Assembly: GCA_009380075.1 (NCBI GenBank)
Contig: WHSO01000003.1
Span: 4,724 to 68,723, forward strand
Length of the DNA: 64,000 bases
Source of the DNA: Alphaproteobacteria bacterium
GTDB taxonomy: Bacteria > Pseudomonadota > Alphaproteobacteria > SMXQ01
Reading direction: 5' to 3'
Positions within the stretch are counted from its first letter, which is position 1; each line of letters starts with the position of its first letter. A program made the position numbers and the translations under genes. Shown here piece by piece: positions 22,322-53,064 of this stretch. Below the pieces are notes generated by a model, which was not told where the DNA came from, made no database searches, and saw only the letters and a list, made by a program, of their open reading frames with translations.

Positions 22322-23488
22322 ATGAACAATAACACAAAGACATACTTGCGCGGATTTTGGAAGACTCTGGCCGGCATCGGCGTGCTGGTGAGCGCCGCCG
22401 GATTCCAGAGCACAACGGCATTCGCCAACGACGGCTGGAAGGCGGAATGGGAGAAGGTCATGGCCGCGGCGCGCAAGGAGGGTGTGGTCGCCGTCTCCGG
22501 GCCGCCGGGCGCATTTCAGCGTCGCGCCATCACCGAAGGTTGGGCCAAGTCGTTCCCCGATATAAGGCTCGAATATACCGGCGGTCGCGGGCGGGACGTC
22601 GTCTCGAAGGTCGTGAGGGAACGCACCGCCGGAATCTACAATTTCGATATCATCCTGGCATCCACCAGCCCGACCGTTTTCGCCCTTGTGCCGATCAATG
22701 CCCTGGCGCCGCTGCGCGATGCCATCATCATGCCGGACATCGCCGATGACAAGACGTGGTACGACAGCTTCGAAGCCGGATTCATGGACAAGGAGAGGAA
22801 GTACTTCTTCAATCCCATGGGCACTGGCGGCCAGGGAGTCGGCTTCGTCAACCGCGACTGCGTTTCGCGGGAGGTGTTCGGCAAGATGCCTGATCTTGCG
22901 AAGCCCGAGTTGAAGGGCAAACTCGTCTGGTATGATCCGACCGGTCCGGGGACCGCCAGCCGGAGTACGTGGCTCATCAGCCTGGTCATGGGGGAAGACT
23001 GGCTTAAGGCGGTCTTCCAGAAGCAAGGCGTCATTTTTTCGCGCAGCTATCGCCAGATGACGGACTGGCTTGTCAGTTGCAAGGTACACTTGGCATTTGG
23101 GATGACGAACGACGTTCTGGAGCAGATGCAGAAGCAGGGAATTGGGACTAAGGTCGAAGACCTTGTCGGACCTGCGTACACCGGGAAGGTCAATCCCGGC
23201 GGAGCCGGCGGGAACGAGAGCATCGGCTGGTACAACAACGCACCGCACGCGAACGCTGCCAAGGTCTTCGTGAACTGGTTCCTGTCGAGGGACTTCCAGC
23301 AGTTCTATGCCGATATTGTCAAAGACAACAGCCGTCGAATCGACGTGAGGCCGGGCGATCCCAAGCATGTGATGGAGAAGGGCAAGGAATATTTCAGCTG
23401 GAGCACCGAAGAGGCGACCGTCCGCGTCAAGGACCTTCAGGAGAAAATCAAGGCCTGGGGCGTGATCAAGAGGAAAAAGAAGAGGTAG
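22322..23488 (+). CDS. ABC transporter substrate-binding protein, Fe3+/polyamine (AfuA-like) class
   Basis: Signal peptide; WEKVMAAARKEGVVAV, DLAKPELKGKLVWYDP, NAPHANAAKVFVNWFLS; ends KRKKKR. Confidence 0.8.
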   Translation: MNNNTKTYLRGFWKTLAGIGVLVSAAGFQSTTAFANDGWKAEWEKVMAAARKEGVVAVSGPPGAFQRRAITEGWAKSFPDIRLEYTGGRGRDVVSKVVRERTAGIYNFDIILASTSPTVFALVPINALAPLRDAIIMPDIADDKTWYDSFEAGFMDKERKYFFNPMGTGGQGVGFVNRDCVSREVFGKMPDLAKPELKGKLVWYDPTGPGTASRSTWLISLVMGEDWLKAVFQKQGVIFSRSYRQMTDWLVSCKVHLAFGMTNDVLEQMQKQGIGTKVEDLVGPAYTGKVNPGGAGGNESIGWYNNAPHANAAKVFVNWFLSRDFQQFYADIVKDNSRRIDVRPGDPKHVMEKGKEYFSWSTEEATVRVKDLQEKIKAWGVIKRKKKR

Positions 23489-23595
23489 GGCCCGCGTCGC
23501 TCAAGTAAGATGGCCTGGGTTTTTCGGCGGCGTCCCCCTTGCCGTCTCGTACAGGTGAAAATTCAAACCAAAAACACGTGTTGGAGGAATCGTTC

Positions 23596-25458
23596 ATGGC
23601 AGTCACCCGAAAGGCAAAGGCCGGCAAGGCCGCGCCTGCAAAAAGGAAAGCGTCGCGCCGCAGGATCGCTCTCGATGTCGAGGCGCCGGTGCCGATGCGC
23701 AAGCGCAACCGGCCGGAATTCGGTTCCGACGCCGTCGCCGAGCTCCTGAACGGATTCGGGTTCGACTACGCGTTCCTCAATCCGGGGTCGAGCTTCCGCA
23801 GCCTGCAGGACTCGCTCGTCAACTACAACGGCAACGTAAAGCCGAAGGTTGTTCTCGGCCTGCATGAGGACGTCGTCACGGCGATGGCCCAGGGTTACGC
23901 GACGGCATCGGGTCGCCCGGCTCTGTGCATCCTTCACAATCTGGTCGGCCTGATGCACGGCGCGATGGGCATCTTCAACATGTATTGTGCCGGAATGCCC
24001 GTGGTGATCCTGGGCGGATCGGGCCCTTCGGACATCACACTGCGGGGGCCCGTGGATTACCTCCATTCGGCCAACACCCAGGGTGAGGTCGTTCGGTCCT
24101 TCGTCAAATGGGATGACGAGGCGACGACGGTCGACGGCGTGCTCGACTCCGTGCTGCGCGGATACAAGATCGCCAACACGAGCCCCAAGGGACCCGTCTA
24201 CATCGCGTTCGACTCGGGGGTGCAGGAGCAGCGGCTGGATGGGCCGGTCGCCATTCCCGACGGCAACCTTCCTTGCTTCCAGGCTCCGGCGGCCCCGGCC
24301 GCCAGTGAAGCCATCGTCGACCGGATCGCCGACATGCTGGTCAAGGCGCGCTACCCGATGATCGTCGGCGGCCGTATCGGCTACCTGCCGTCCGCGACGG
24401 GGCCGGTGCGGGAACTGGTGGAGCTTCTGGGCGCGGCCTATCGGGAGGATCGCACGTTCGTCTCCATGGCGACGCGGCACCCGCAGAACCTGACCGGTTC
24501 GCGCGACGCGCTGGCGAAGGCCGACGTGGTGCTGGCGCTCGACTGTGCCGACGTCCGTTCCGCCGTAGGCGGTTACGCATCCGATCGCAGCAATGTCTAC
24601 AAGACGCTGGACTCGAACGGCCAGAAGGTTATCGACCTGTCAATGAACGAAAGCGCCAGCCGGCGCTGGAACCGTGTCGGCGGCGCCATCGCCGATACCG
24701 CCCTGCAGGTGATGGCGGACCCCCTGACCGGACTCTCCCAGATCATCGACGCCGTCCGGGAACGAACCCGGGCGAAGCCCGATCTCGCCGCCCGTTTCGC
24801 CCGCCGGGCAAAGTCGATCGCCCGGGAGAAGGCGGCTCTCGTCCGCGAGCAGGAAAAGCGGCTCAAGGCACGCTGGAACGAAAATCCCATCTCTCCCGGC
24901 CGCATGGTGGCGGAGCTCTGGGCGGCGGTGCGCCACACGCCCTGGTACCTGACCCTGCGCAACCATCGCTCCTGGCCGGAAGGCGTGTGGGAGTTCGACG
25001 GCGCGGGGCAGTACGCCGGCCATTCGTCGGGTGGAGGTCTCGGTCACGGTCCCGGGGCGTCGGTGGGCGCGGCGTTCGCCTGCCGCGACGACGGGCGTTT
25101 TCCGGTGGGCATCATCGGCGATGGCGATTTCCTGATGGCGACCTGTGCGGTATGGACCGCGGTCCACTACAAGCTGCCCTTGCTGATGGTGATCAACAAC
25201 AACACGTCTTGGTACAACGACGAGGAACACCAGTTCAAGATCGCCAAGGGCAGGGGACGCCCGCCGGAGAACGCCTATATCGGAACGACGACGCGCGATC
25301 CCGACGTCGATTTCGCAAAGGTGTCCGAAGGCTACGGCGCTTACGTCGAAGGGCCGATTACGGAACCGGACGACCTCGCCGGGGCCCTCAAGCGTGCGGT
25401 CAAGGTGGTGGAAGACGGCGGGGTGGCGGTTGTCGACGTGCGCACGGCCAATCTGTAG
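23596..25458 (+). CDS. Thiamine-pyrophosphate-dependent enzyme (benzoylformate decarboxylase / acetolactate synthase-like)
   Basis: FLNPGSSFRSL, LHED catalytic Glu, SPKGPVYI, GDGDFLM...NNTSW TPP motif; RBS GGAGG. Confidence 0.88.
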   Translation: MAVTRKAKAGKAAPAKRKASRRRIALDVEAPVPMRKRNRPEFGSDAVAELLNGFGFDYAFLNPGSSFRSLQDSLVNYNGNVKPKVVLGLHEDVVTAMAQGYATASGRPALCILHNLVGLMHGAMGIFNMYCAGMPVVILGGSGPSDITLRGPVDYLHSANTQGEVVRSFVKWDDEATTVDGVLDSVLRGYKIANTSPKGPVYIAFDSGVQEQRLDGPVAIPDGNLPCFQAPAAPAASEAIVDRIADMLVKARYPMIVGGRIGYLPSATGPVRELVELLGAAYREDRTFVSMATRHPQNLTGSRDALAKADVVLALDCADVRSAVGGYASDRSNVYKTLDSNGQKVIDLSMNESASRRWNRVGGAIADTALQVMADPLTGLSQIIDAVRERTRAKPDLAARFARRAKSIAREKAALVREQEKRLKARWNENPISPGRMVAELWAAVRHTPWYLTLRNHRSWPEGVWEFDGAGQYAGHSSGGGLGHGPGASVGAAFACRDDGRFPVGIIGDGDFLMATCAVWTAVHYKLPLLMVINNNTSWYNDEEHQFKIAKGRGRPPENAYIGTTTRDPDVDFAKVSEGYGAYVEGPITEPDDLAGALKRAVKVVEDGGVAVVDVRTANL

Positions 25459-25534
25459 GGGGCGTGCAGGGCGGGCTGTTACCGCGGGGGCGGTCTGCCC
25501 AGGCCCCTGAACCTCTACAGGCGAAGTCCGGACG

Positions 25535-26593
25535 CTAGGCGCGAAATACCATCATATCGGTGAGACCGCCGACCTTGGAAAGGTCGACCGGCAGGCGCCC
25601 CCAACTGCCGCCGCCGTCGCGACTGCGGAACAGGTGTCCCTTGTGCGTGCACACGTAGACATCGTCAGGATTGGCAGGGTCGATAGTGATCGCCCCGGGA
25701 AACTCCGGCCCGATTTCCTCGAACGGGGTCTTGGTTTCCTGCCAATGCTTGCCGCCGTCCCGTGAGGCGATCATGCGCGCTTCGGCGCCTGACGGACGCC
25801 GCCACTGCGGCGGCCCGTTGGCGATGCTCGTGAAGAGGACATCGGGATCGTTCGGGTGCATCACCAGGGGAACCGCGTAATCCTGGTAAAACTCAGTCGC
25901 CATGGGGCTCCAGGTTTCGCCAGAATCGTCGCTGACGTAAAGCGCCTTGCCCGCGGTTTCGCCAAGCCGATGGCCGTGGCCTCCCGTGGCGGCGTAAATG
26001 CGTGAAGGCTTCTCCGGCGGGATGACGAGGGTATGGACATCGGCATCGATTCCGCCGGTCAGCAGCTTCCAGGTGATGCCGCGGTCCGTGCTCTTGCCCA
26101 GGTAGCCAACCTGGAGCGCGGCGTACATGACATCCCGGTTCTTGGGGTCGATGGTGATGTCCCGAACATGCGGCTCAACGCTGGGGACGGGATAGGTGAT
26201 CGCCGGCACACTTGGCAGGTCGCGCAGCCCGGGCAGGAGTTCCCAGTTCTCCCCGCCGTCATGGGTGACGTAAAGGCCGATGGGCTCGGTTCCGACGTAG
26301 ATGGTGTCGGGGTCGAACGGGTCGACGGTGACGCAATGCACCTTGCCCGGGCCGGGCCGTCCGTAATTGGGTTTGGTCCAGCCGCCGGTCCGGCCTTCGC
26401 CGCTCTTGTCGGTCTGCAGCCAGATACCGTCTCCCCGGGTTCCGGCGATCAACTGGCCGGAGCCGTTCAGCGCCAATTGGGTCACTTCCCATCCGGGAAG
26501 GAAGATACGCTCGTTCAGCTGCCAGTCGTTCTTGCCGTTTTCGCTGATGGCGACGACACCGCGATCGGAACCGGCATAAATGACAACACCCAT
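25535..26593 (-). CDS. BNR/Asp-box (WD40/YVTN-like) beta-propeller protein, no signal peptide
   Basis: Repeated SxDxGxTW boxes (THDGGENW, STDRGITW, SDDSGETW, SRDGGKHW, SRDGGGSW); EPHVRDI motif shared with the paralog at 35736. Confidence 0.8.
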   Translation of the reverse strand: MGVVIYAGSDRGVVAISENGKNDWQLNERIFLPGWEVTQLALNGSGQLIAGTRGDGIWLQTDKSGEGRTGGWTKPNYGRPGPGKVHCVTVDPFDPDTIYVGTEPIGLYVTHDGGENWELLPGLRDLPSVPAITYPVPSVEPHVRDITIDPKNRDVMYAALQVGYLGKSTDRGITWKLLTGGIDADVHTLVIPPEKPSRIYAATGGHGHRLGETAGKALYVSDDSGETWSPMATEFYQDYAVPLVMHPNDPDVLFTSIANGPPQWRRPSGAEARMIASRDGGKHWQETKTPFEEIGPEFPGAITIDPANPDDVYVCTHKGHLFRSRDGGGSWGRLPVDLSKVGGLTDMMVFRA

Positions 26594-26705: not shown

Positions 26706-27662
26706 TCAGTAGGCTCCCTGACCGTCGACGCGGTTCGCCAGGGCTTCTCCCCGCAGGTGCCGTTTCAGGTTTTCCGTAAATACATTCCGCAATTTCGACC
26801 AGCGTAGCGGGTCCGTCTGCGCGATATTGGGGCTGATGATCAGGTTGGGGGCGTCCCACAGCGGTGAGGTTGTGGGCAGGGGATTGGCGCCGAAAACATT
26901 GCACGCGGCGCCCGCGATCCAGCCTTCGCGCAGTGCGCGGGCCAGGGCCTCGTCATCGACGATGCCGCGGGTGACCAGATTGATCAGATGACTCGTGGTC
27001 TTCATCGACCGCAACTGCCCTTCCCCGATGAGGCCCTGAATCCCCGGAATGGGTGGAAGGCCGACGATCAGGAAATCCGCTTCTGACAGAATCCCGTCGA
27101 GCCCCTCCATCCCGCAGACGCTTTCCACATAGGGCGGCACCTGGTTCACATTGCGCCGGATCGCGCGTACCTTCATTTCCTGCTTGTGTAACCTCTGGGC
27201 GACGGCGGAACCGACCGCCCCCAATCCCAGGAGTCCGACCACTTTGCCCGACAGGGTATCGAGCGCGAGGGTCTCATCCCAGCGGCGTGCCTGCTTGAAC
27301 TCCGAAAGCAGCGGAAACTTCTTGGCCAAAGCGAGGACGCAAGCCTCCGCATATTCCGAGAGGGGGTGCGCCTGCACGCCCCGGCTGCAGGTGACGGCGA
27401 TGCCCTGGGAAGCGACGTGCGGCGTCAGGAACGACAGGCCGCCGCCGTAGGTCGTGTGTATCCACTTGAGTGAAGGAAGTTGCACGGTCGTCTCGTCCGG
27501 GAGTCTCGAACGCGTGAATATTATGTCGACCGATGAATGGTCGTCGGGTTTCAGTTCGACGGAGAACCTTGCGTTCGGAAACTCACGACCAAGCCGCTCG
27601 GCATCGCCTTCGGGTAGTTCATCGCCCAATCGAAGCCACACATGGCAGTTCAAGATACGCAC
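26706..27662 (-). CDS. D-2-hydroxyacid dehydrogenase family protein
   Basis: GLLGLGAVG, LINLVTRGIVDD, AACNVFGANPLP, WDAPNLIISPNIA. The usual DVF.xEPL and PH catalytic positions are altered. Confidence 0.8.
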   Translation of the reverse strand: MRILNCHVWLRLGDELPEGDAERLGREFPNARFSVELKPDDHSSVDIIFTRSRLPDETTVQLPSLKWIHTTYGGGLSFLTPHVASQGIAVTCSRGVQAHPLSEYAEACVLALAKKFPLLSEFKQARRWDETLALDTLSGKVVGLLGLGAVGSAVAQRLHKQEMKVRAIRRNVNQVPPYVESVCGMEGLDGILSEADFLIVGLPPIPGIQGLIGEGQLRSMKTTSHLINLVTRGIVDDEALARALREGWIAGAACNVFGANPLPTTSPLWDAPNLIISPNIAQTDPLRWSKLRNVFTENLKRHLRGEALANRVDGQGAY

Positions 27663-27759
27663 TCCTTTTCCTCATACACGGGACAGGCACAACGACTGTG
27701 GTGCCCGGTTTCGATTCCTGCGCAGGAGTATCCGATGCCGCTATTCCGGACTCGATCCG

Positions 27760-28875
27760 TTAGAGCGCAAAGGCCTTCAGGCGTTCGACGGGCACGCCCA
27801 CCTTTATGCGCTCGCCTTCGGCCAGAATTCGCTGACCATGCAATTCGGCGAGGATGCAGACGTCGCCCGCCATCAACTCGCACGAGCTCCGACCGCCGGT
27901 AAACGTGGACGACTTCACCATCGCATGGAAGACATTGGCACCCGCAGCCGCCGTATCCGGATCGCCGACCAGGATATCCTCGGGACGAATCATGATATTG
28001 AGGACTTCGCCCATCCGAATTCCTTCCGGCGCCGCATCGCGCCGGCAGGAGAGGGTGAAAGGGCTGCTTTCGACCCGCACGTCGATATGTACGAGCCCGT
28101 CGTCGATCCTGGCGACCGTGCCTTCGAGGAAACTGCTCTTGCCGATGAAACCGGCGACGAAGGCGTTCACCGGATCGGCGTAGATCTCTCCCGGGCTCGC
28201 CTCCTGCTGGATGATGCCGTCCTGCATGACGGCGATGCGGTCCGAGATGGCCATGGCCTCTTCCTGGTCGTGGGTCACATACAGGCCCGTCAGGCCTAGC
28301 CGCTTGATGATCCTCTGGATTTCGGTCCGCATTTCGACGCGCAGCTTGGCGTCGAGGTTGCTCAGCGGTTCACCGAGGAGGAGGAGCTTGGGTTCGTAGA
28401 CCAGGGCCCGCGCGAGGGCGACGCGCTGCTGCTGCCCGCCACTCAGCATGGGGGAGGGCCGGTCCGCCATTCCTTCGAGCTGGACCAGGGACAGGGCGTT
28501 CAGGACCCGCTCCTTCACTTCGGCCTTCGGAACATTCCGGTTCCCACGCACCAGCGGGAAAGCGACATTCTGGTACACGGTCATGTGAGGCCAGATCGCA
28601 TAGGACTGAAAGACCATCCCCACGCCGCGCCGTTCGGGCTGCAGGTTGATGCCTCGCGTCCCGCTGAAGACCGTGAGGTTGCCGATCGTGATTTCGCCGG
28701 AACTGGCCGTCTCCAGCCCGGCGACGGAGCGCAGCGTCGTGCTCTTGCCGCATCCGGAAGGGCCGAGCAACGTGTAGATTTCCCCGGTCTGGACCTCGAA
28801 GGTGATCCCCTTCAGGGCTTCGACGGTCCCGGCATCGGTCCGGTATTGCTTGTACAGATTTTCGACCTTGAGCAT
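27760..28875 (-). CDS. ABC transporter ATP-binding protein (FbpC/PotA-like); Walker B reads LLLLGE
   Basis: GPSGCGKST, LSGGQQQR, YVTHDQEEAM; Gly codon at 28372-28374 where Asp is expected. Confidence 0.9.
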   Translation of the reverse strand: MLKVENLYKQYRTDAGTVEALKGITFEVQTGEIYTLLGPSGCGKSTTLRSVAGLETASSGEITIGNLTVFSGTRGINLQPERRGVGMVFQSYAIWPHMTVYQNVAFPLVRGNRNVPKAEVKERVLNALSLVQLEGMADRPSPMLSGGQQQRVALARALVYEPKLLLLGEPLSNLDAKLRVEMRTEIQRIIKRLGLTGLYVTHDQEEAMAISDRIAVMQDGIIQQEASPGEIYADPVNAFVAGFIGKSSFLEGTVARIDDGLVHIDVRVESSPFTLSCRRDAAPEGIRMGEVLNIMIRPEDILVGDPDTAAAGANVFHAMVKSSTFTGGRSSCELMAGDVCILAELHGQRILAEGERIKVGVPVERLKAFAL

Positions 28876-34304: not shown

Positions 34305-34380
34305 TCCTGTCCCCCTGTCGTCGTGCATTGGTTTCTGCACAATCGCTTATTCGGAATTTGTTGTGTCCTAGTATTGCCCG

Positions 34381-34398
34381 GATTGCGTCAGATTGCGT
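34381..34398. repeat. GATTGCGT direct repeat (10-bp period) in the AT-rich divergent promoter
   Basis: gattgcgtca gattgcgtac at 34381 and 34391, between divergently transcribed SBP genes. Confidence 0.45.
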
Positions 34399-34567
34399 AC
34401 CTGAAAAAATTGCTGATTGATTCAATTAGTTTTTTTCGCCAGAGTACTTAAAGGGATGTCAGGCTGGCACAACATGGTCATTTGGCGCAAAGGAGAATTT
34501 CCCGGACGTTGATTATAATTTCCCATTCCTAGTTGTGGCGCAGGAAAAATAGATCAGGGAGGCTGCT

Positions 34568-45011: not shown

Positions 45012-46994
45012 TTACGACAACGTGTCCTGTAGCCACTGCCACAGGACGGGTTCGGGCCAGATCATGCTCATCACGTGATCGAAGAACCCAAAGATGGCGG
45101 CGGCAATGATTCCGCCGGTGAGGATACCCCAGGCCCACGGGCGCCGCCCCGTCATCAGCGCCGCGGGCGACACTGCCGCCAGGGCGATCGCGGCGTATTG
45201 CAGTCCGACCAGCGCGGCGAGGACGACGAACAGCAGCAGCAACCCGCCGAGTATCAGCGCCGACCGCCCGCGCCCTTCGACACCGGCGCTGAGCATGCCG
45301 AGGTCGAGAACGTCGCCCACGCCACGCTGCCAGCCGTTGAGGACAATCTGCGCCAGCGCAAGGCCGATCACCAGAATGCCGAGGCCGAGGGGAAAACTCG
45401 CGGCCTTGGGCTCGAGTCCAACCGCCCGCCAGATGAACCAGGCCGCGATGGCGATGAAGAACGTAGGGAAGAGATTCTGCCAGGTCCAGCGCCATCGTTC
45501 GCGAACGGCCGTCGTGGCGGGTTCGCTGTCCATGCCTGTCCTGAGACGGGCAAAGAAGATAGCGATGGCGACGGCGAGCACCAGCAGGGCGATGGTCAAG
45601 GGCCGCTGGAGCATGCCGTCGACACCATAAAGGGAGATCGCCGAAAGCAGGTTCTCCTCGACGATGCCGCCAAGGATGAAGCCGAGGATCAGCGGCGGCC
45701 GCGGCCAGCGATACTGCTTCATCAGAAGGCCGAGCACGGCGAAGGCCAGCACGATCGGGATGGCGGTCCAGTGGCGGGTTTCCTGAAACGCCGACAACAG
45801 CGCCAGAGGAATGATGACCGCACCCAGCAGCGGGTAGGGCACGCGGGTCAGTTTCGCCAGCTGTCCCGACCACAGGATTCCAATGATCGCGAGCGCGGCA
45901 TTGCCCATGACCATGCTGACGACGATCAGGGTGACGATGTCGCCGTGCTGGCTCAACATCTGGGGCCCGGGTGAAACACCGTAGGCGAGCATGGCGATGA
46001 GCACGAACACCCAGCTCTGTCCCCCGGGCAGGCCGAGGGCGAGTGTGGGGATTGCCTGCCCCCCTTCCTTGGCGCTTTGCACCGATTCCGAGAACACCAG
46101 CCCCTTGTAGGAACCCTTGCCGAAGTGATGGCGGTTCTTCGCCAGTGAAATGCCGATGCCATAGGACAGCCAGGACACGACCCGCGAACCCACGCCGGGG
46201 ATCGCGCCGAGGAACACACCAAGGATGGAGTGGCGCAGGACCAGTTGCCAATACCGGAAGGCGAGACCGACCCCGCGAAACACCTCGCGCGTACGCAGGT
46301 TTTCCGCACGCCCGGCGATGGCCTTGCGGGTCATCGTCAGGTCGAACATCTCCGGCAGCGCGAACAGGCCGATGGCCGTGGCGATGATCGGCAGCCCCTC
46401 GCGCAGTTGCAGGGAGCCGAAAGTGAAGCGTTCCTCCCCGGTAAAGACGCTGAGCCCGATGGTCGACAGCAGCATGCCGAACGCCGCCGCCAGGATGCCC
46501 TTGACCATGGCGCCGCGCGACAGCGCACCGACCATGGCGACGCCGAACAGGCCCATGGCTCCGATCTCGGCAAAGCTGAATTGCAAGATGAACGGCTTGA
46601 TGACGGGCATGACCAGCAGGAGCGCCACGGCGCCAATCAATCCGCCCATGGCAGAGACCGTGTAGACGAACCCCAGTACCCGAGCCGCGTGCCCCCGGGA
46701 GGACAGGGGCCGGGCTTCGATGAATGTAACCTGTCCGCCGCCCGGATGGCCGAGCGCGACAATGGGCAGCACGTCAAGCATTTCCTCGACCGCGGTGATC
46801 GTCGCCAGCATGGCGATGCCGATGACAGGATCCTGAATGTTGAAAACGATGAAGGGGACCGCGAGCGCCATCAGCAGGCTCGACGACACGCCGGGCAGCA
46901 GGCCCGCCACCGCGGCCATGGCCACGGCGGTCAGGAACGCCAGCCAGTAAGTCTGGGAGCCGAGCAGTCCGAACCCGGCGAAGATCGCGTCCAT
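45012..46994 (-). CDS. tctA: TctA-TctB fusion tripartite tricarboxylate transporter permease
   Basis: AGLLPGVSS, ERFTFG, FLGAIPGVG, KEGGQAIPTLALGLPG, WPRPPLILGFILG, plus a C-terminal 4-TM TctB-like domain ending IWPEP. Confidence 0.87.
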   Translation of the reverse strand: MDAIFAGFGLLGSQTYWLAFLTAVAMAAVAGLLPGVSSSLLMALAVPFIVFNIQDPVIGIAMLATITAVEEMLDVLPIVALGHPGGGQVTFIEARPLSSRGHAARVLGFVYTVSAMGGLIGAVALLLVMPVIKPFILQFSFAEIGAMGLFGVAMVGALSRGAMVKGILAAAFGMLLSTIGLSVFTGEERFTFGSLQLREGLPIIATAIGLFALPEMFDLTMTRKAIAGRAENLRTREVFRGVGLAFRYWQLVLRHSILGVFLGAIPGVGSRVVSWLSYGIGISLAKNRHHFGKGSYKGLVFSESVQSAKEGGQAIPTLALGLPGGQSWVFVLIAMLAYGVSPGPQMLSQHGDIVTLIVVSMVMGNAALAIIGILWSGQLAKLTRVPYPLLGAVIIPLALLSAFQETRHWTAIPIVLAFAVLGLLMKQYRWPRPPLILGFILGGIVEENLLSAISLYGVDGMLQRPLTIALLVLAVAIAIFFARLRTGMDSEPATTAVRERWRWTWQNLFPTFFIAIAAWFIWRAVGLEPKAASFPLGLGILVIGLALAQIVLNGWQRGVGDVLDLGMLSAGVEGRGRSALILGGLLLLFVVLAALVGLQYAAIALAAVSPAALMTGRRPWAWGILTGGIIAAAIFGFFDHVMSMIWPEPVLWQWLQDTLS

Positions 46995-47031
46995 CTCGGT
47001 TCCGATCCGTGTCCGCCTGAGGACCGGCAAT

Positions 47032-48291
47032 CTAGCGCGACGCGGTGTCCAGCTCCTTCAGAAGGGGGCTGTATTTCGTCGTGTTGCCGCTGCGGAGGCC
47101 CTTGATGACGTTGCCCGCGGTGCCGGCGAGCTTGGCCTTTTCGACCGGCAGGTCGATGGGGGCCATGTCGGGATCGCGAAACACGTTCATCGGGTCCTTG
47201 CCGGCGGCGACGGCCTGGAGCGATTCCTCCAGCAGCTTGCGATAGAGCACGATCCCCTTGTCGGACCGGCCCAGGTTCTCGAGCGACCGGTTCGCGATCG
47301 GGCCCTGGGTGATCCAGGCGACGATATCCTGGCCACTATTGTTGTCGAGGATGTCCCACTGCGGCAGCCCGGTGTCGTCGAGCTGGGGCACAGGTGCGGA
47401 GAAAAGAGGAATCTCATCCTTGGGCTGGGGATGGAGAGGTACGCCCGATTCGGGCGTGTAGCAGCGGTACCACCAGTAGGCGGTCTGGGTATCGTCCATC
47501 GGGACGCGGATCTGGAACGCCGGCGAGGAGACACTACCGCTCTTTAAAATGTTCGGGAAGACCACGGGGTGGCCGGTCGTCCAGTCCTCGTCCGCTTCGC
47601 TGCGACCCTCCAGCACGCGGCGCTTGATGATACCGTAATCGAAGACATCGAAGCCGATCTTCTGGTGGGACTGGGGGTTGCGTATTTTCTCCGGCTTACC
47701 CAGCTTGCCCGCCACGTAATTGCGCAGATGCTGGTGCAGCCATTCGACATGGATGGGATCGAGGGAATTTTCCATGATCTGCAGCCAGTTGCACGGCACC
47801 ACGGCGTAGCCGATCTCACGCATGACGTCCTTCGCGACGAAAAGGTCGTAGGGCGGCAGGACGGGGACCGGATCGGGCCCCATGTACGCGAACAGCATGC
47901 CGCCCGATTCCGCTATCTTGTAGGCTGGCGTCCTGATCCGGTCCTTGAACCGTCCTTCGGGGTTTTCCGTGTCTTCATACGGCTGTTCGATGCAGGCGCC
48001 GGTCTTGTCGAAGTGCCAGCCATGATAGGCGCAGCGCAGGCCGCATTCGGTCGGGATGCCGTAGACGAGCGACATGCTGCGATGGGGACAGCGCGCCGCG
48101 ATCAGTCCATAGGCCCCGGACAGGTCACGATAGAGCACCAGATCCTCGCCAAGCAGGCGGACGGGGAGCGTGTCGCGGTTCTTCATCTGAGCGTGCGTCG
48201 CGATCGGGTACCAGTAACGCCGCAGCAGGTCGCCCATCGGCGTGCCTGATCCCACCCGGGTCAAACGTTCATTCTGTTCCGAAGACAGCAT
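47032..48291 (-). CDS. Rieske non-heme iron oxygenase alpha subunit, phthalate 4,5-dioxygenase / LigX-like clade
   Basis: LTRVGSGTPMGDLLRRYWYP, CPHR...CAYHGW Rieske motif, NWLQIMENSLDPIHVEWLH, QDIVAW...NRSLENLGRSDKGI. Confidence 0.88.
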   Translation of the reverse strand: MLSSEQNERLTRVGSGTPMGDLLRRYWYPIATHAQMKNRDTLPVRLLGEDLVLYRDLSGAYGLIAARCPHRSMSLVYGIPTECGLRCAYHGWHFDKTGACIEQPYEDTENPEGRFKDRIRTPAYKIAESGGMLFAYMGPDPVPVLPPYDLFVAKDVMREIGYAVVPCNWLQIMENSLDPIHVEWLHQHLRNYVAGKLGKPEKIRNPQSHQKIGFDVFDYGIIKRRVLEGRSEADEDWTTGHPVVFPNILKSGSVSSPAFQIRVPMDDTQTAYWWYRCYTPESGVPLHPQPKDEIPLFSAPVPQLDDTGLPQWDILDNNSGQDIVAWITQGPIANRSLENLGRSDKGIVLYRKLLEESLQAVAAGKDPMNVFRDPDMAPIDLPVEKAKLAGTAGNVIKGLRSGNTTKYSPLLKELDTASR

Positions 48292-48900: not shown

Positions 48901-50136
48901 ATGCTGAAGTCCCTCACCGACGGTGGCATCGCGCGGGCTCTGCGTCACCGCAACTATCGCAATTACGTCGGCGGCGACGGAATCTCCCTGATCGGCAACT
49001 GGGTGCAGCGGGTGGCCATCGGCTGGCTGACTTGGGAATTGACCCATTCGGGCCTGTGGCTTGGCATCGTAGCCATGGCGGAACTGTTCCCGTCGATCTT
49101 CTGCGCGCTGTTGGGCGGTGCGCTCGCCGACAAGCATGACCGTCGCATGATCGCGATATGGGCGGAAGTCCTCTTGCTGCTGCAGGCGCTTGCCCTCGCG
49201 CTTCTGACCTGGACGGGGCTGATCGATATCTGGTGGCTTGTTTTCCTCACCGTACTGCGCGGCGTGTTCAACGCCGGCAGTCATCCGGCGCGGCAGGCAC
49301 TGGTGCCGAGCCTGGTTCCGCCTGCCGACCTGTCGAGCGCGATTGCCTTCAATTCCGTGGTCTTCAACATCGCGCGCTTCATCGGCCCCGTCGTATCGGG
49401 ACTCATCATCGCACATCTCGGCATCGCCAGTGCCTTCGCCTATAACGCCGCGTCGTTCCTGGTGTTCATCCTGGTACTCCTGCGCATGCAGATGCCCTAC
49501 ATCGAACAGTTTACGCGCAAGCACCAGTCCCTCTACGCGCAGATGGCCGAAGGCCTTCGCTATATTGCCGGGCACGCCGGCATCGGGCCGATGCTGTTGC
49601 TCCTTACGCTGACATCGGTGCTGGTGCGGCCGCTCGCCGACCTGCTGCCGGGTTACGCCGGCGCCGTGTTCGAATCGGGGGCGACGGGCCTTGCCTGGCT
49701 GACCTCGGCCATGGGTTTGGGGTCCATGGTTGCCGCCTTCGGCATCGCGCAGCGTGGGCGTGTCGGAGGACTCACCCGCCTCGCCGTCGCCAATGCTGGC
49801 ATCATGGCCGTCGCCGCGATGGCCTTTGCTTTTGCCCCGAGCTTCTGGCTGGCTTTGGTCCTTCTCGCCGTCGCCAGCTATGGCATCACGGTAACAGGTG
49901 TCAGCGGACAGGCGCTGATCCAGAGCGCGGTGTCCGGCGAGTTGCGCGGCCGGGTCATCAGCATCTACGGCATGATCTTTCGCGCCGCCCCGGGATCGGG
50001 CGCGCTGGTGATCGGCGCCCTGTCAGAACGATTCGGCTGGCACTGGCCGCTCGCGATCAGCGCGCTCTTGTGCCTCGGGGTCTGGTTATGGGCACGGCGG
50101 CGCCTCAGGCGCATGTCGGCGGCTCTGGAATCCTGA
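48901..50136 (+). CDS. MFS transporter (EntS/DUF894-like)
   Basis: RALRHRNYR, GGALADKHDRR, SAIAFNSVVFNIARFIGP, ELRGRVISIY; 12 TM segments. Confidence 0.88.
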   Translation: MLKSLTDGGIARALRHRNYRNYVGGDGISLIGNWVQRVAIGWLTWELTHSGLWLGIVAMAELFPSIFCALLGGALADKHDRRMIAIWAEVLLLLQALALALLTWTGLIDIWWLVFLTVLRGVFNAGSHPARQALVPSLVPPADLSSAIAFNSVVFNIARFIGPVVSGLIIAHLGIASAFAYNAASFLVFILVLLRMQMPYIEQFTRKHQSLYAQMAEGLRYIAGHAGIGPMLLLLTLTSVLVRPLADLLPGYAGAVFESGATGLAWLTSAMGLGSMVAAFGIAQRGRVGGLTRLAVANAGIMAVAAMAFAFAPSFWLALVLLAVASYGITVTGVSGQALIQSAVSGELRGRVISIYGMIFRAAPGSGALVIGALSERFGWHWPLAISALLCLGVWLWARRRLRRMSAALES

Positions 50137-50182
50137 GGCGATGCCCGGTCCCGGATTCTCCCGCCACGCGCCGTCCGGCGGC

Positions 50183-51256
50183 TCAGTTGAGCCCATAGAA
50201 CGCCCGCGCGTTGGCATCCAGGATCTTGTTGACCGTCTGCTCCGGCAGTTTTCCCTCGTCCCGCATCAGGCGCATGGCATCGATCTCCGTCGCCTGGTCA
50301 TGATGGCCGTAGTCGGTCCCGATCACTAGGTTGTCGTCGCCGACCTTGCTGATGATATAGGGCAGGTCGTCGGTCATCTGACAGGCGACATAGATGTTGT
50401 TGCGCTTGAGAAGGTCAGCCGAGCTCCAGCTCGGGTTGTTCCGGTTCTTCCAGTAGCTGAGTTCGGTATAGTTGATGGCGTAGGGTACCCAGGAGGCGCT
50501 GAATTCGACGAATCCCCAGCGCATCTTCGGGAACTTCTGTGGAATGTCGCGCATGATGAGGGCATGAAACGCGCCGACGCCGGGCGAACGGTTGGACATG
50601 AACCGGGTCGAGGAATTCTTGAACAGGTTCATATACGTCGCGCTATGAATGCCTGAGTGGATGCAGGCCGCAAGGTCGAGTTCCTGCGCGATTTCCCACA
50701 GCGGATAGAAATAGGGATCGTCGAGTTCGCGGTCGTTCTCGATGCCGACGAGAAAGATGCCGCAGGCGCCGTTGTCCTTGCAGAAACGGAGCTCGTCCGC
50801 GACCTTCTCCCTGGAGCGCAGCGGCGGAATCGCCACCCAGCGCAGGCGGTTGTCGCTCTTCTTCCAGATATCGGCGAGCCAGCGGTTATAACTGCGGATC
50901 AGCGCCCATTCGCAGTCCGGGTTCTCGGTCTTGCTGCTGAGGAAATAGGTCGGATACAGGACCTGGACGTCGATGCCCATCTGGTCCATATGGGCGAGCC
51001 GGCCCTTGATGTCGGTCATTTCACGCTGGCCCGGCGTGGTTTCGTCATAGCCCTGGTTGCGCGTGGGCGACCAGACATTGCCGTCCACCAGCCAGTATTC
51101 CTTGCTACGGGCCTTGCCTCCTTGGGTATCGATGATGTCGTCGGGGGACGAGTGCAGGAGGACGGGACGGTATTTCTCCTGCCCCTTCTCCATATAGGTG
51201 AAGGTCCGCAGGGTTTCGATCACATGGGCATCGGAATCGACGATCTTGAGAGACAT
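50183..51256 (-). CDS. Amidohydrolase family 2 protein (more distant paralog)
   Basis: VDSDAHV, RLAHMDQMGIDVQVLYPT, CIHSG, GTDYGH. Confidence 0.85.
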   Translation of the reverse strand: MSLKIVDSDAHVIETLRTFTYMEKGQEKYRPVLLHSSPDDIIDTQGGKARSKEYWLVDGNVWSPTRNQGYDETTPGQREMTDIKGRLAHMDQMGIDVQVLYPTYFLSSKTENPDCEWALIRSYNRWLADIWKKSDNRLRWVAIPPLRSREKVADELRFCKDNGACGIFLVGIENDRELDDPYFYPLWEIAQELDLAACIHSGIHSATYMNLFKNSSTRFMSNRSPGVGAFHALIMRDIPQKFPKMRWGFVEFSASWVPYAINYTELSYWKNRNNPSWSSADLLKRNNIYVACQMTDDLPYIISKVGDDNLVIGTDYGHHDQATEIDAMRLMRDEGKLPEQTVNKILDANARAFYGLN

Positions 51257-51490
51257 GGTTTCCTTCCCGGACTAGGGCCTGAACGGCCGGTCATTTGCCC
51301 ACAGGATAGGCCCTCCGGTTCCCGGTTCCAAGTGGGCGAGGCGGGTAGCGGGCCGCCGTCCGGTTTTGGCTGTTCCTGGCCCGTAACCGGCGTGTGCCGC
51401 CGCCCCTGCCATGCTATAGAAAGGCAAATGTGTCGCGAGAGCTCAAGCGATGGCGCATGCATCCGAAGGGAACATGGGGAGACCGGGATC

Positions 51491-52626
51491 ATGAATTTTC
51501 ACAACCAATTGGCACTCGTCGGGGCAATTCTGGCGATCGCTTGGCCGTCTGGGTCGGCGCATGCCCTCGAGGACTGGAATTCCGTGCTGGCGCAAGCCCG
51601 TCAGGAAGGCCTCGTCGTCGTCCATGGTGCGCCGGGCAAGAGTTACGCCGACGCGATGGTGAGGGCCTTCAACAAGGCCCATCCCGATATTCGGGTACAG
51701 TTCTCCGGCGCGTCCAACCGCACCGACGTGCCCAAGCTGCTGCGGGAGCGCAAGGCCAGCATCTATGCCTGGGACGTCTGGGTCTCGGGCGCGGGCACGG
51801 CGGTGTCGCGGCTCAAGCCCCAGGGCATCTTCCAGCCCCTGCGCCAGTACCTGAGAAAAGAGACGATGGAGGACAAGCACTGGCATGGGGAATTCGGCGC
51901 CGGCTGGATGGATAACGAGAAGCAGTTTTTCTATTCCTTCGAGGGCACCGTGCAGAATCCCGTTTCGGTCAATTGGGAGTTCGTGAAGAAGTCCTCCATC
52001 ACGTCGATCAAGGATCTGCTCAAGCCGGAATTCGCGGGCAAGATCATCTGGCACGATCCCCGCTTCAACGGATCGGGCAACGGCGCGTCCCAGACGCTCT
52101 TTGTCAACTTCGGCGAAGACTTCCTGAGGGCCTTCTACCGTCAGAAGATCGTCTATGCGACGAACCGCCGCCAGATCGCCGATTGGGTGGTGCGCGGCCG
52201 CTATCCCATCGCGCTCGGCCTTGACGAGAACGACGTGAAGGTCTTCCAGAGCCAGGGATTGGGTAAGCAGATCGAACCGTTGCCGGAAGTTTCTACAAGA
52301 TCCAGCAGTTGAGTTCCGGCTTCGGCGGCGTCGGTATCGTCGACCGTGCGCCGCATCCGAACGCGGCCGCTGTCTACGTGAACTGGCTGCTCGGCAAGGA
52401 TGGCCAGGAGGCCTGGTCGCGCGTACCCCGCATCTCGCGGCGGCTCGACGTCAAGGCGGTGGATACCAGTCTTCTGCCGCGTCCCGGGGTCGTCTATTTC
52501 AACGGGCAGACCGAGGAGAACGCCAAGCAGCGGATCATGCTGCAGGGGATTGCGCGGGAGGTGATCGGTGCCCCGCCGGAAAGGAAGGGGCGGAAGAAGA
52601 AGCGAAAGAAGAAATCAGGGGAATAG
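51491..52626 (+). pseudogene. ABC substrate-binding protein (Fe3+/polyamine class) split by a 1-nt deletion near 52289
   Basis: Signal peptide from ATG 51491. The frame stops at 52312, but the -1 frame continues FYKIQQLSSGFGGVGIVDRAPHPNAAAVYVNWLL and ends in RKKKRKKKSGE. Confidence 0.75.
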
Positions 52627-52650
52627 AACTGGCCGCATACGGAGGAAATC

Positions 52651-53064
52651 ATGGCTCAACCGACAAACCGCAAGGCGAAGGTCCGGCACATCGCGATCAA
52701 GACGCCTGACCCGCAGCGCCTTGCCGATTACTACACCAAGGTCTACGGCCTTGATGTCGTTTTGCGGCGCGCGACCGGCTCGGTTTACCTGTCCGACGGC
52801 GATCTGTGCTTGGCGCTTCTGCCGACGCGGGGCGAATGCGCACCCGGGATCGAGCATTTCGGTTTCCACATCCAGGACCCCCAGGAGATTGCCGACGCCT
52901 TGGAAGGGATGGGCATGGAACGGCCCAAGGGGCGTCCGAACGATCCACCATTTGCCGAGACCCGCGTTTGCGATCCCGACGGCAACATGATCGACCTTTC
53001 GGTGCACGGGTTCGAGATGCAGGAATTCCAGGCCGACCGGGTCAGAAAAGCGGGCGTGAAGTAG
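52651..53064 (+). CDS. VOC (glyoxalase/bleomycin-resistance/extradiol dioxygenase) family protein
   Basis: VRHIAIKTPDP...YYTKVYGL, GIEHFGFHI, DPDGNMIDLS. Confidence 0.85.
   Translation: MAQPTNRKAKVRHIAIKTPDPQRLADYYTKVYGLDVVLRRATGSVYLSDGDLCLALLPTRGECAPGIEHFGFHIQDPQEIADALEGMGMERPKGRPNDPPFAETRVCDPDGNMIDLSVHGFEMQEFQADRVRKAGVK

Follow-up and report, generated by a model that had tools for sequence, protein, structure and literature searches.

Two paralogous BNR-propeller modules in an alphaproteobacterial catabolic island: a plausible system for (hetero)aromatic carboxylates

Enzymes that decarboxylate ring-fission products or hydroxy-aromatic acids are known among proteins of the class II aldolase fold and of family PF04909 (PMC6362003). 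One member of the class II aldolase family, Mlr6791 (2z7b), is a decarboxylase of the vitamin B6 pathway. The amidohydrolase-related dinuclear oxygenases (AROs) are recognised by defined signature motifs (PMC13154177). The AROs characterised so far act as hydroxylases of aliphatic C-H bonds, with 2-aminoisobutyrate and aminoethylsulfonates as substrates. The phthalate-dioxygenase clade of Rieske oxygenases also includes N- and O-demethylases.

The window analysed here is a stretch of 64,000 nucleotides from an uncultured sediment alphaproteobacterium. It holds an accessory catabolic island that we read, with moderate confidence, as two paralogous, separately conserved BNR modules plus passengers, importing and degrading (hetero)aromatic carboxylates. 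No characterised pathway matching the gene set was found, as an earlier note on this DNA had anticipated, and no family in the island reaches the equivalog cut-off for a known pathway enzyme. Elsewhere, the set is carried by uncultured soil and sediment bacteria. Its recurrence in at least six phyla makes an undescribed pathway that acts on aromatic or heteroaromatic acids its probable function.

Layout, transport genes and propellers

Gene content, paralogy, cross-phylum conservation, folds and motifs were computed. Pfam and NCBIfam scans bore out the two-arm gene map of the earlier note, in families and in positions. Each of the two divergent arms encodes Fe3+-class solute-binding proteins (SBPs), the fused permease and ATPase of an ABC importer, and a BNR propeller located in the cytoplasm, and catabolic genes flank both transport arms. 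Between the arms lies an AT-rich intergenic stretch (34341..34567), the presumed site of the promoters of both; a scan of it for the sigma-70 consensus found no site, so this role is one we infer from reading the sequence. The island is bordered on the left by glmS and a Ku/LigD set and on the right by TonB, a TonB-dependent receptor and a haem-uptake locus, which makes its boundaries sound. No regulator, ferredoxin or reductase gene was found in the island region, and no LigB, TenA/PqqC or RidA gene within the window. Judged from pairwise identities, the arms are true paralogues, as had been claimed: the BNR proteins share 43-47%, the ATPases 51%, SBP_L1 and SBP_R 50% and the permeases 27%.

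The left arm, on the minus strand, has three SBPs, each with a signal peptide. SBP_L1 (33195..34340; Pfam SBP_bac_8, 6, 11 and 1) is a periplasmic protein of the Fe3+/AEP class. SBP_L2 (32000..33148) and SBP_L3 (30785..31939) are periplasmic members of a second SBP family (SBP_bac_8) and are 67% identical. They are followed by a fused double permease (28929..30722) with two BPD_transp_1 stretches, PhnU2-like though under the cut-off, and by a PotA/PhnT2-like ATPase (27760..28875; ABC_tran, TOBE_2) that scores 321 bits against NCBIfam PhnT2, also under the cut-off. On the plus strand, the right arm encodes the periplasmic SBP_R (34568..35677), a Fe3+/AEP-class protein with Pfam matches; its PDB matches, to SBPs of the iron, PLP and sugar-phosphate types, are remote (E ~1e-6). 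Its ATPase (37632..38717; ABC_tran, TOBE_2) is PotA/PhnT2-like and its fused double permease (38714..40471; BPD_transp_1) PhnU2-like. SBP0 (22322..23488, plus strand; SBP_bac_1), a periplasmic Fe3+/AEP-class protein with a signal-peptide-like N-terminus, is 30-32% identical to SBP_R and SBP_L1 and is peripheral to the core. Common to both modules are thus several Fe3+/AEP/thiamine-class SBPs, one ABC importer (fused permease and TOBE ATPase) and a BNR propeller. Beyond these, the left module (25.5-34.3 kb) has a D-2-hydroxyacid dehydrogenase, and the right module (34.6-48.3 kb) has the class II aldolase-fold protein (AldII), an NMT1-fold protein (NMT1cyt), the ARO, a Gfo/Idh/MocA dehydrogenase (Gfo), a bicupin and a Rieske oxygenase.

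The system is marked by its BNR propeller gene. BNR_L (25535..26593, minus strand; Pfam Sortilin-Vps10, BNR) and BNR_R (35736..36779, plus strand; Pfam matches) are seven-bladed BNR/Asp-box propellers that, unlike the SBPs, have no signal peptide. Their family, as yet uncharacterised, numbers over 1100 homologues about 347 amino acids long. The AlphaFold model of BNR_R (pLDDT 94.8) has as its top PDB match 3b7f (TM 0.80), a protein of unknown function. Structural comparison yielded no characterised relative of the propeller, so it could be non-catalytic. E99, E136, H138, R140, Q157, K163, D181, H183, R205, Y215 and Y235 are invariant, and H202 is conserved at 90%. In the predicted model, the conserved polar residues sit at the starts of A-strands and the ends of B-strands. 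The propeller probably catalyses a further pathway step in an axial pocket lined with invariant His, Asp, Glu and Arg.

Enzymes of the island

The D-isomer-specific 2-hydroxyacid dehydrogenase of the left arm (26706..27662, minus strand) matches Pfam 2-Hacid_dh_C. In the right arm, AldII (36900..37619, plus strand; Pfam Aldolase_II) scores 183.8 bits against the NCBIfam model of 3,4-dihydroxyphthalate decarboxylase (PhtC; cut-off 200), and one relative reaches 199.6. Against sugar-phosphate aldolase models it scores 81 bits or less. By these scores, AldII is probably a PhtC-type decarboxylase. NMT1cyt (40518..41453, plus strand) matches nothing in Pfam or NCBIfam and has no signal peptide; it is cytoplasmic. 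Its predicted structure (pLDDT 93) confirmed the proposed NMT1/THI5/SsuA fold, with Foldseek matches including 3qsl, PqqT, Thi5 and SsuA, and also ThiY. It may be either an enzyme or a binding partner.

Immediately downstream is the PF04909 protein that had been called an amidohydrolase (41472..42635, plus strand). It carries both ARO signature motifs, D11-T-H13 and D345-Y-P-H-A-E350, and in the PDB it matches 8sm9 (6.6e-22) and PtmU3 (3.4e-19) ahead of ACMSD (1e-8). Its sequence thus makes it most likely a dinuclear oxygenase, and the amidohydrolase label was dropped. The Gfo/Idh/MocA NAD(P) dehydrogenase (42656..43873, plus strand; Pfam matches) is a candidate cis-dihydrodiol dehydrogenase; its top NCBIfam matches are inositol and sugar dehydrogenases. 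The bicupin (43870..44991, minus strand; Cupin_2) is a candidate ring-cleaving dioxygenase, although its match to gentisate 1,2-dioxygenase 3bu7 is only remote (E 2.5e-5). The alpha-only Rieske oxygenase (47032..48291, minus strand; Pfam Rieske, LigXa_C) falls in the phthalate-dioxygenase clade, and its best PDB match is 7fjl (PDO_KF1; E 1.4e-49). Aligned with phthalate dioxygenase, it retains the Rieske and Fe motifs, whereas the phthalate-binding arginines are replaced (Arg207 by Lys, Arg244 by Thr).

Several further genes had been counted as members of the system, and comparison with other loci places them as passengers. The TPP-dependent enzyme (23539..25458, plus strand; TPP_enzyme_N, TPP_enzyme_C) is of the benzoylformate-decarboxylase/PRK08327 type, with 235 bits against PRK08327 (cut-off 456), and is probably a passenger. 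The TctA-TctB fusion, a tripartite tricarboxylate transporter membrane protein (45012..47030, minus strand; TctA, weak TctB), is probably an insertion outside the core; it is absent from the bicupin-Rieske interval of a family relative (L084). The VOC/glyoxalase-fold protein (52651..53064, plus strand; Glyoxalase) is single-domain. Among 35 BNR loci whose 10-kb flanks are complete (the full-flank loci), homologues of the TctAB, TPP and VOC genes occur in one, none and none, respectively. An EntS-like MFS_3 transporter (48901..50136, plus strand; Pfam and NCBIfam matches) and a second PF04909 protein (50183..51256, minus strand; Pfam match) are of doubtful connection. The latter has the DxH motif (DAH) and DYGHHD and misses the ARO C-terminal motif. 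The pair also lies near glmS in congeners that have no island, with the MFS homologue at 44-47% identity.

Conservation in relatives and across phyla

In an alphaproteobacterial MAG (L008), the stretch from BNR_L through the ARO gene (25.5-42.6 kb, 17 kb) is collinear at 62-80% amino-acid identity, with no Rieske gene within 10 kb. The family relatives L084, L012 and L018 keep the right-arm SBP, BNR, NMT1cyt, ARO, AldII, Gfo, bicupin and Rieske genes in shuffled order. Gfo is 64% and the bicupin 74% identical in L084, the Rieske enzyme 72-74% in L084 and L012, and in L084 the Gfo gene adjoins those of the bicupin and Rieske enzyme. The set therefore does not scatter independently in related genomes. 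The proposal of one single 31-kb system did not hold, as the arms are separable: L012, L018 and L084 have the right arm without the left, and L106 and L087, from another genus, have the left module without the right. In L106, the left module comes with an NMT1-like gene and with an AldII gene of its own (69%). Across L008, L087 and L106, BNR_L orthologues are 60-72% and left permeases 75-79% identical, and the 2-hydroxyacid dehydrogenase gene adjoins BNR. NMT1cyt is 63-76% identical in relatives, and its gene is invariably directly 5' of the ARO gene. Both adjacencies are kept across lineages.

The survey of BNR homologues took in about 80 loci. Every one came from a MAG, and between them they carry six or more phylum labels. 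Members of these gene families also lie around BNR in other lineages, among them Binatia/'delta', Chloroflexota and Verrucomicrobiota. Among the full-flank loci, homologues occur for the Rieske enzyme in 24/35 (69%), AldII in 22/35 (63%), the Fe3+-class SBP in 20/35 and the permease in 17/35. A rough background, taken from family density in this one genome, is 6-11% per 21 kb (about 6-9% for Rieske and AldII), and Rieske, LigB, class II aldolase and same-type ABC genes lie well over it. LigB extradiol dioxygenases are the commonest neighbours (39/80 loci), and many Binatia/'delta' loci have the order 2-hydroxyacid dehydrogenase, BNR, LigB. Bicupins and two-domain VOC proteins recur, the latter in Binatia loci.

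Substrate class and alternative readings

The best reading of the chemistry is an oxygen-dependent, decarboxylase-rich breakdown of imported (hetero)aromatic carboxylates. We infer the substrate class and the order of steps as follows. The various binding proteins would capture related aromatic or heteroaromatic carboxylates for import. The Rieske and dinuclear oxygenases would then hydroxylate or dealkylate them, with electron donors from elsewhere in the genome. The product would be re-aromatised by the Gfo dehydrogenase and decarboxylated by the class II aldolase-type enzyme. Ring opening would fall to the bicupin in this island and to LigB in most relatives. The 2-hydroxyacid dehydrogenase may take a side product that is a 2-oxo or 2-hydroxy acid, and the propeller would probably add its own step. 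The aromatic or heteroaromatic substrates proposed earlier fit the phthalate-dioxygenase-like Rieske enzyme, the near-threshold PhtC-like AldII and the frequency of LigB. The replaced phthalate-binding arginines, the missing reductase, ferredoxin, regulator and LigB genes, and the lack of a Rieske gene near the L008 core count against this reading.

A non-aromatic substrate is possible since AROs act on aliphatic C-H bonds and this SBP class usually takes iron, phosphonate, polyamine, thiamine or phosphorylated ligands. The modules would then take up and oxidise small aliphatic compounds, either zwitterions or acids, for instance aminophosphonates, organosulfonates, sugar acids or unusual amino acids. 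The two oxygenases would be C-H hydroxylases or N/O-dealkylases, in line with the ARO precedents and the demethylases of the Rieske clade. AldII would work as a genuine aldolase or as an epimerase, hydroxy acids would be the substrates of the Gfo and 2-hydroxyacid dehydrogenases, as the nearest Gfo models suggest, and the TPP enzyme would be a 2-oxoacid decarboxylase or Xsc-like lyase. The top PDB sequence match of the NMT1cyt profile is the taurine-binding protein TauA, and the top models for the transporter parts are the putative 2-aminoethylphosphonate PhnS2, PhnT2 and PhnU2. However, all transporter scores fall far under the AEP equivalog cut-offs, AldII prefers PhtC (184 bits) to sugar-phosphate aldolases, and the Rieske match to phthalate dioxygenase and the recurrent LigB, bicupins and two-domain VOC proteins speak for aromatic substrates. 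We regard this reading as unlikely, if the foremost rival.

Less likely still is salvage or degradation of N-heteroaromatics (pyridine, pyrimidine or quinoline-carboxylate compounds related to B6, thiamine pyrimidine or PQQ) in place of carbocyclic acids. The SBP class includes thiamine and PLP binders, with the PLP binder 6wce the second-best PDB match in the SBP search. The NMT1 fold resembles PqqT, ThiY and Thi5, Mlr6791 belongs to the AldII family, and 13 of the related loci have PqqC/TenA-like genes, a few of them RidA. Every one of these matches is remote, however, TenA/PqqC and RidA are absent from the window, and the Rieske, Gfo and PhtC-like set suits phthalate-type logic at least equally.

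The least probable alternative is a mosaic of unrelated operons, with the BNR role separate from its catabolic neighbours. Homologues in the 3.5-Mb genome number 15 for Rieske, 21 for the bicupin, 15 for the fused permease and 10 for AldII, so chance neighbours would be frequent, the arms occur apart, the passengers are unlinked to BNR elsewhere and Bradyrhizobium-type loci retain the SBP-BNR pair alone, yet the collinearity in L008, the set retained in L084, L012 and L018, the Rieske and AldII frequencies in distant phyla and the kept adjacencies all speak against it.

At the right edge of the island, tblastn with SBP0, SBP_L1 and SBP_R detects a frameshifted Fe3+-class SBP (51491..52626, plus strand) in two frames that meet near 52300, either a pseudogene or an assembly error. 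Two other contigs of the host genome, C29 and C162, carry more paralogous sets, with LigB.

Gene order and borders of the island

The island diverges from a 227-bp AT-rich intergenic region at 34341-34567. The left arm starts from here on the minus strand with three genes for solute-binding proteins (SBPs) with signal peptides. Next come the importer genes, for a permease of the fused double type and an ATPase with a TOBE domain, and then those for a D-2-hydroxyacid dehydrogenase (2HADH) and a BNR propeller protein. On the plus strand, the right arm opens with SBP and BNR genes, followed by a gene for a class II aldolase-fold protein (AldII). Its ATPase and fused permease genes come next, and after them those for a protein of 311 aa, the first of two PF04909 proteins, and a Gfo/Idh/MocA dehydrogenase (Gfo). 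Three genes run toward this arm from the right, for a bicupin, a TctA-TctB fusion, and a Rieske oxygenase. Outside these lie, to the left, genes for a further SBP and a TPP enzyme. To the right are those for an MFS_3 transporter, a second PF04909 protein, an SBP with a frameshift, and a small VOC protein. The map drawn in the earlier note is reproduced by ORF listing and profile scans, and the note's description of the arms as paralogous also holds: the BNR proteins are 43-47% identical, the ATPases 51%, the first left-arm SBP (SBP_L1) and the right-arm SBP (SBP_R) 50%, and the permeases 27%. Signal peptides are present in the binding proteins and absent in the BNR proteins.

No regulator, ferredoxin, or reductase gene was found in the region. 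Between the divergent arms, a scan for the sigma-70 consensus gave no site, and a TGGCAC-like word there lacks sigma-54 spacing. The BNR gene is in no RNA sequencing run searched.

The island is bordered by glmS and Ku/LigD on one side and a TonB/heme-uptake locus on the other. Around the island, congeners have glmS alone in common (70% identity), and the heme locus is missing there. Two congeners carry an MFS-PF04909 pair, 44-47% identical to that of the window, 6 kb from glmS and with no BNR module. Because of this, the MFS and second PF04909 genes of the window are probably not part of the island. Directly after the island, 53511-60848 encodes a complete TonB, TonB-dependent receptor, and HemS/HemTUV heme-uptake locus; HemS is missing from six congeners. 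A siderophore or other biosynthetic cluster was considered for the EntS-like MFS, the Fe3+-class SBPs, and the adjacent heme-uptake locus. This reading was rejected because there are multiple importer SBPs, no biosynthetic enzymes, and an MFS that is unlinked to the island in congeners.

Three genes of the region have unusual forms. The frameshifted gene at 51491-52626 encodes an SBP of the same family as SBP_L1, SBP_R, and the flanking Fe3+-class SBP at 22322-23488 (33-37% identity), and is split over two frames near 52300, which marks a pseudogene or an artifact of assembly. At 45012-47030, TctA and TctB are fused into one 672-aa ORF with TctA first, and the usual order is tctB ahead of tctA. 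This fusion is located between the bicupin and Rieske genes, which adjoin directly in a related locus, L084. The TPP enzyme ORF (23539-25458) has a ~60-residue basic Lys/Arg/Ala-rich extension ahead of its TPP_N domain, and its start codon is uncertain.

Conservation of the core gene set

The BNR family is tight, with proteins of ~347 residues in more than 1100 clusters at 90% identity. These clusters are unnamed or named 'photosystem II stability/assembly factor-like' throughout. A scan of one genome per species found 123 BNR relatives, and the loci of the best 80 were examined (L-numbers). All of these best 80 of 123 are from MAGs, so culture-based biodegradation work would have missed the system. 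They are labeled Alphaproteobacteria, 'delta'/Binatia, Thermodesulfobacteriota, Chloroflexota/Dehalococcoidia, Verrucomicrobiota, Acidimicrobiaceae, and others. The source organism itself occurs in sediment and soil metagenomes. A close BNR orthologue is found in none of seven congeneric genomes and in about a quarter of the genomes of the family.

In L008, an alphaproteobacterial contig, the whole two-arm core is collinear from the left-arm BNR gene to the PF04909 gene at 62-80% identity, with an extra LigB extradiol dioxygenase gene between the right-arm BNR and aldolase genes. L084, L012, and L018, from the window's own family, keep all right-arm families in a shuffled order; in L084, Gfo (64%), bicupin (74%), and Rieske (72%) genes adjoin directly with no TctAB between them. 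The left arm is found alone in L087 and in L106, which belongs to another genus of the family. The left arm of L106 has its own aldolase (69%) and an NMT1-like gene. Since the window's left arm lacks both, it may rely on the right arm's copies.

Loci of Binatia/'delta', Verrucomicrobiota, and Chloroflexota have a recurrent layout. A leftward run of VOC2, NMT1-SBP, Rieske, and the cytoplasmic NMT1-fold protein (NMT1cyt), ending further along in two AldII genes, is followed by a rightward run of 2HADH, BNR, LigB, and MFS3 and a second leftward run of ATPase, permease, bicupin, Rieske, and SBP.

Neighbors were counted at the 35 BNR loci having full 10-kb flanks. The counts rest on tblastn because greedy gene calling missed genes under spurious high-GC ORFs, including the right-arm BNR and AldII genes of the window. 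A Rieske homologue lies near BNR at 24 of the 35 loci, AldII at 22, an Fe3+-class SBP at 20, the permease at 17, and the ATPase at 16. NMT1cyt and MFS homologues are each found at 12 loci, 2HADH at 11, bicupin at seven, Gfo at five, and TctAB at one, and the TPP enzyme and VOC protein at none. The chance expectation for Rieske, AldII, SBP, and permease, estimated roughly from their density in the window's own genome, is 6-11% per 21 kb. These counts, together with the relatives' loci, therefore indicate that the core set is conserved and the passengers are not.

The independent scatter of genes against which the earlier note had set its proposal is not seen: L008 is collinear, and elsewhere the set is kept after shuffling. 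The proposal of a single 31-kb system stands in part. The core is co-conserved, but the passengers are unlinked, and the arms are separable modules that happen to adjoin here and in L008.

Three variants were observed among the relatives. In four Bradyrhizobium/Xanthobacteraceae MAGs (L005, L016, L019, L021), the SBP-BNR pair alone is kept, with overlapping stop and start codons; the next gene encodes a 699-aa protein that matches CarboxypepD_reg faintly. This pair may be the minimal unit of the system. At 15 Binatia/'delta' loci (L023-L042, L072, L089), a ~140-aa NFACT-R_1 (DUF814-like) protein lies between NMT1-fold genes. In L038, L055, L056, and L062, a RidA/YjgF-family protein lies between LigB and bicupin, beside BNR, a hint that the ring-fission product there is amino-substituted.

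Protein families of the island

The Rieske enzyme aligns from residue 1 with the phthalate dioxygenase PDO_KF1 (7fjl; 1.4e-49). It is alpha-only, has the CPHR...CAYH motif, and its N-W-x-Q...E...D..H....H iron block aligns with that of PDO_KF1. Arg207 and Arg244 of PDO bind the phthalate carboxylates and are specificity determinants (PMC8649396). In the HMMER alignment these are replaced by Lys and Thr, respectively, in a gapped stretch where the assignment is moderately secure. From its sequence, the enzyme is placed in the PDO clade, yet is predicted not to be a phthalate 4,5-dioxygenase. In pht/oph clusters, a reductase is expected alongside the oxygenase. Searches for a cognate reductase found no further Rieske motif in motif scans and no reductase domain in Pfam scans, and matches to the plant-type [2Fe-2S] motif are confined to antisense or spurious ORFs.

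AldII scores 183.8 bits on the model of the 3,4-dihydroxyphthalate decarboxylase PhtC (NF053537), below the cut-off of 200, and a Binatia relative scores 199.6 bits. On sugar-phosphate aldolase/epimerase models AldII scores at most 81 bits. These scores point to a close kin of PhtC and not a member. Decarboxylases of hydroxy-aromatic pathways include both class II aldolase-fold and PF04909 proteins (PMC6362003). The bicupin has a remote link to gentisate 1,2-dioxygenase.

The importer is compared with the 2-aminoethylphosphonate transporter PhnS2/T2/U2. The SBPs score 27-38 bits on the PhnS2 model (cut-off 393), the ATPases 321-348 bits on PhnT2 (cut-off 458), and the permeases 127-128 bits on PhnU2 (cut-off 593). 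It is thus assigned to the same transporter class, with a different predicted specificity.

The right-arm PF04909 product (41472-42635) has as its closest solved relatives 8sm9 (6.6e-22), PtmU3, and AibH-type proteins, and matches the ACMSD/LigW decarboxylases at 1e-8 or weaker. These relatives are amidohydrolase-related dinuclear oxygenases (AROs; PMC10811679). As defined in PMC13154177, AROs have the PF04909 fold, D-x-H on the first strand, and a C-terminal D-x-P-H-x-[D/E] after ~200 or more residues. Both motifs, so defined, are present as D11-T-H13 and D345-Y-P-H-A-E350. Because of them, the product is most likely an O2-dependent dinuclear oxygenase and not a hydrolase; by these motifs and its closest solved relatives, the label 'amidohydrolase' given in the earlier note probably does not hold. 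The second PF04909 protein (50183-51256) has DYGHHD in place of this C-terminal motif. Known AROs include PtmU3, AibH2, SfbO, and DitZ (PMC10811679, PMC13154177); the window protein has no Rieske ferredoxin partner nearby.

The 311-aa protein (NMT1cyt) is cytoplasmic, and in alphaproteobacterial loci its gene is always directly upstream of the oxygenase gene. By sequence it has no match in Pfam, NCBIfam, or a single-sequence PDB search, and profile searches give weak TauA and SsuA matches alone. Its model (pLDDT 93) has an NMT1/THI5/SsuA/PqqT-type binding-protein fold. Foldseek places it in the type II PBP fold, matching 3qsl at E 7.5e-15 and also PqqT, Thi5, and SsuA. Pairing of an NMT1-fold gene with an ARO gene was not found in the portions of the ARO literature available (PMC10811679, PMC13154177).

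The BNR proteins have six S-x-D-x-G-x-[ST]-W Asp-boxes in the alignment and match Pfam BNR and Sortilin-Vps10, as expected of a propeller. The model of the right-arm copy is a seven-bladed propeller (pLDDT 94.8). Its best structural match is 3b7f (TM 0.80, 22% identity in the structural alignment), and lower-scoring matches include GH74, Ycf48, lactonase, and CMLE propellers. Common to 49 diverse homologues are E99, E136-P-H138-x-R140, Y153, Q157, K163, D181-V-H183, R205, Y215, and Y235, and 90% or more of these proteins keep H202. From the strand pattern of the model, these residues would lie where the innermost strands begin and the second strands end. In propellers, such positions are the usual active face around the axis.

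The nearest proteins differ in form or setting. Reut_B4987 (3b7f), annotated 'putative glycosyl hydrolase with BNR repeats', is likewise a seven-bladed Asp-box propeller and is a structural-genomics protein without an assigned function. GH74 enzymes are secreted and have two propellers, whereas the window proteins are compact, cytoplasmic, and ~347 aa; the right-arm copy partially matches one of the two GH74 propellers (TM 0.6-0.67). As regards glycoside hydrolases with BNR repeats (GH74, GH33 sialidases), the BNR proteins lack a signal peptide and no carbohydrate genes lie nearby. Ycf48 is an assembly factor, whereas the BNR family has its own invariant His/Asp/Glu/Arg set. The match to the F510_1955 model is partial (96 of 175 bits).

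A tentative reading, to which we give rather less than even weight, is that BNR is a new, possibly metal-dependent enzyme class with an axial His/Asp/Glu/Arg pocket that carries out the committed step of an undescribed (hetero)aromatic-acid pathway. Such a pathway would be common among uncultured bacteria of soil and sediment in at least six phyla and missing from cultured model degraders. The dinuclear oxygenase and the NMT1-fold protein always adjacent to it would make up a second new unit, an oxygenase of two proteins.

Elsewhere in the same genome (G000:C77:3978-6529) are two BNR paralogues only distantly related to the window's proteins (26-27% identity), and one adjoins a small Gly-Gly-ended Ubl (...FQALSGG). 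The window's copies have no Ubl neighbor and are set in transport and catabolism operons. Assigning them to a Ubl-paired propeller family was considered and rejected on these grounds.

A proposed route and its relation to described pathways

From the gene families and their conservation, as observed here, we infer the chemistry of each step. The presence of several SBPs per importer points to a group of related ligands, which they would capture for that importer. In the cell, hydroxylation or dealkylation of the substrate would fall to the Rieske enzyme and the dinuclear oxygenase, with electron donors encoded outside the region. Gfo would rearomatize the dihydrodiol, and the aldolase-fold enzyme would remove the carboxyl group ortho to the hydroxyl. 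The ring would be opened by the bicupin here and by LigB in L008 and most other phyla. 2HADH, whose gene is kept beside that of BNR in several phyla, would take a 2-oxo or 2-hydroxy acid as its substrate, and the propeller would carry out a further step.

The identity of the substrate admits other readings. A vitamin-like N-heteroaromatic compound is compatible with the SBP classes and with the PqqC/TenA-like and RidA genes in relatives. A non-aromatic substrate is suggested by the AEP-like transporter scores, the TauA-like fold matches, and the aliphatic substrates of known AROs; the LigB proteins, bicupins, and PhtC-like scores argue against it. That the island is a pure mosaic of genes is unlikely given the collinearity and the retention of the set after shuffling. 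The island is read as a catabolic one with an ABC importer and at least one orphan protein family, possibly a new enzyme.

Of described systems, those nearest to the island are the phthalate and 2,3-dihydroxybenzoate pathways, with logic and three enzyme families in common, and the ARO superfamily, to which motifs link one gene. Like Pht/Oph phthalate clusters, the island has an alpha-only Rieske of the PDO_KF1 clade, an adjoining Gfo-type dehydrogenase, an AldII just below the PhtC cut-off, and a dedicated uptake system, here a multi-SBP Fe3+-class ABC system. Unlike them, it lacks Arg207/Arg244 and a reductase gene, and adds the BNR propeller, dinuclear oxygenase, NMT1-fold protein, and bicupin.

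The protocatechuate 4,5-cleavage (Lig) locus has LigAB with LigC, LigI, LigU, LigJ, and LigK. No LigB lies within 22-53 kb, and Pfam scans of the genes in this region found no PrpF-like (LigU) or RraA-like (LigK) family.

In 2,3-dihydroxybenzoate meta-cleavage of Pseudomonas reinekei MT1 and the opa pathway for o-phthalate of Pseudomonas sp. PTH10, a Rieske step is followed by diol dehydrogenase, extradiol cleavage, and decarboxylation of the ring-fission product by class II aldolase-fold DhbB or PF04909 OpaD (PMC6362003). The window has this logic in common. However, those pathways use type I extradiol (VOC) enzymes for ring cleavage and a two-subunit Rieske, whereas the window Rieske is alpha-only, lower-pathway genes are lacking, and the PF04909 protein looks like an oxygenase and not a decarboxylase.

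None of the window families reaches the equivalog threshold of any named pathway. The earlier note had not recognized the set as any named pathway, and a literature search that was short of most subscription journals found neither a match nor a description of the propeller family or gene combination.

If the proposed route is correct, it is a common, unstudied one for uptake and oxidation of (hetero)aromatic acids in uncultured soil and sediment bacteria, including Alphaproteobacteria, Binatia, Chloroflexota, and Verrucomicrobiota. It would give a first function to the orphan cytoplasmic BNR propeller family, to a subgroup of Fe3+-class binding proteins, and to a member of a recently defined oxygenase superfamily that is still annotated 'amidohydrolase'.

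Similar clusters are found in the same genome (G000). LigB homologues lie at C100:337-1350 on the window's own contig, 3.4 kb upstream of the window, and on C162 and C29. Regions C29:32000-58600 and C162:29600-55500 have no BNR gene but draw on the same families, namely LigB, bicupins, Rieske, AldII (50-56% identical), Gfo, NMT1-like, fused permease, SBP, and MFS. The 3.5-Mb genome has ~15 Rieske, 21 bicupin, and 15 fused-permease homologues. With these BNR-less LigB sets and the LigB upstream of the window, the organism thus appears specialized in such chemistry.

Another catabolic cluster is found upstream on the window's own contig (C100:253-4700 and window 1-8700). It encodes LigB, TctC/TctA, an alpha/beta hydrolase, an FAD enzyme, PrpD-like and ornithine-cyclodeaminase-like proteins, and a cytoplasmic protein similar at its N-terminus to the PhnD-like cytoplasmic cluster of related loci. 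At 1201-2370, it also encodes a paralogue that is 69% identical to the right-arm dinuclear oxygenase and has both ARO motifs.
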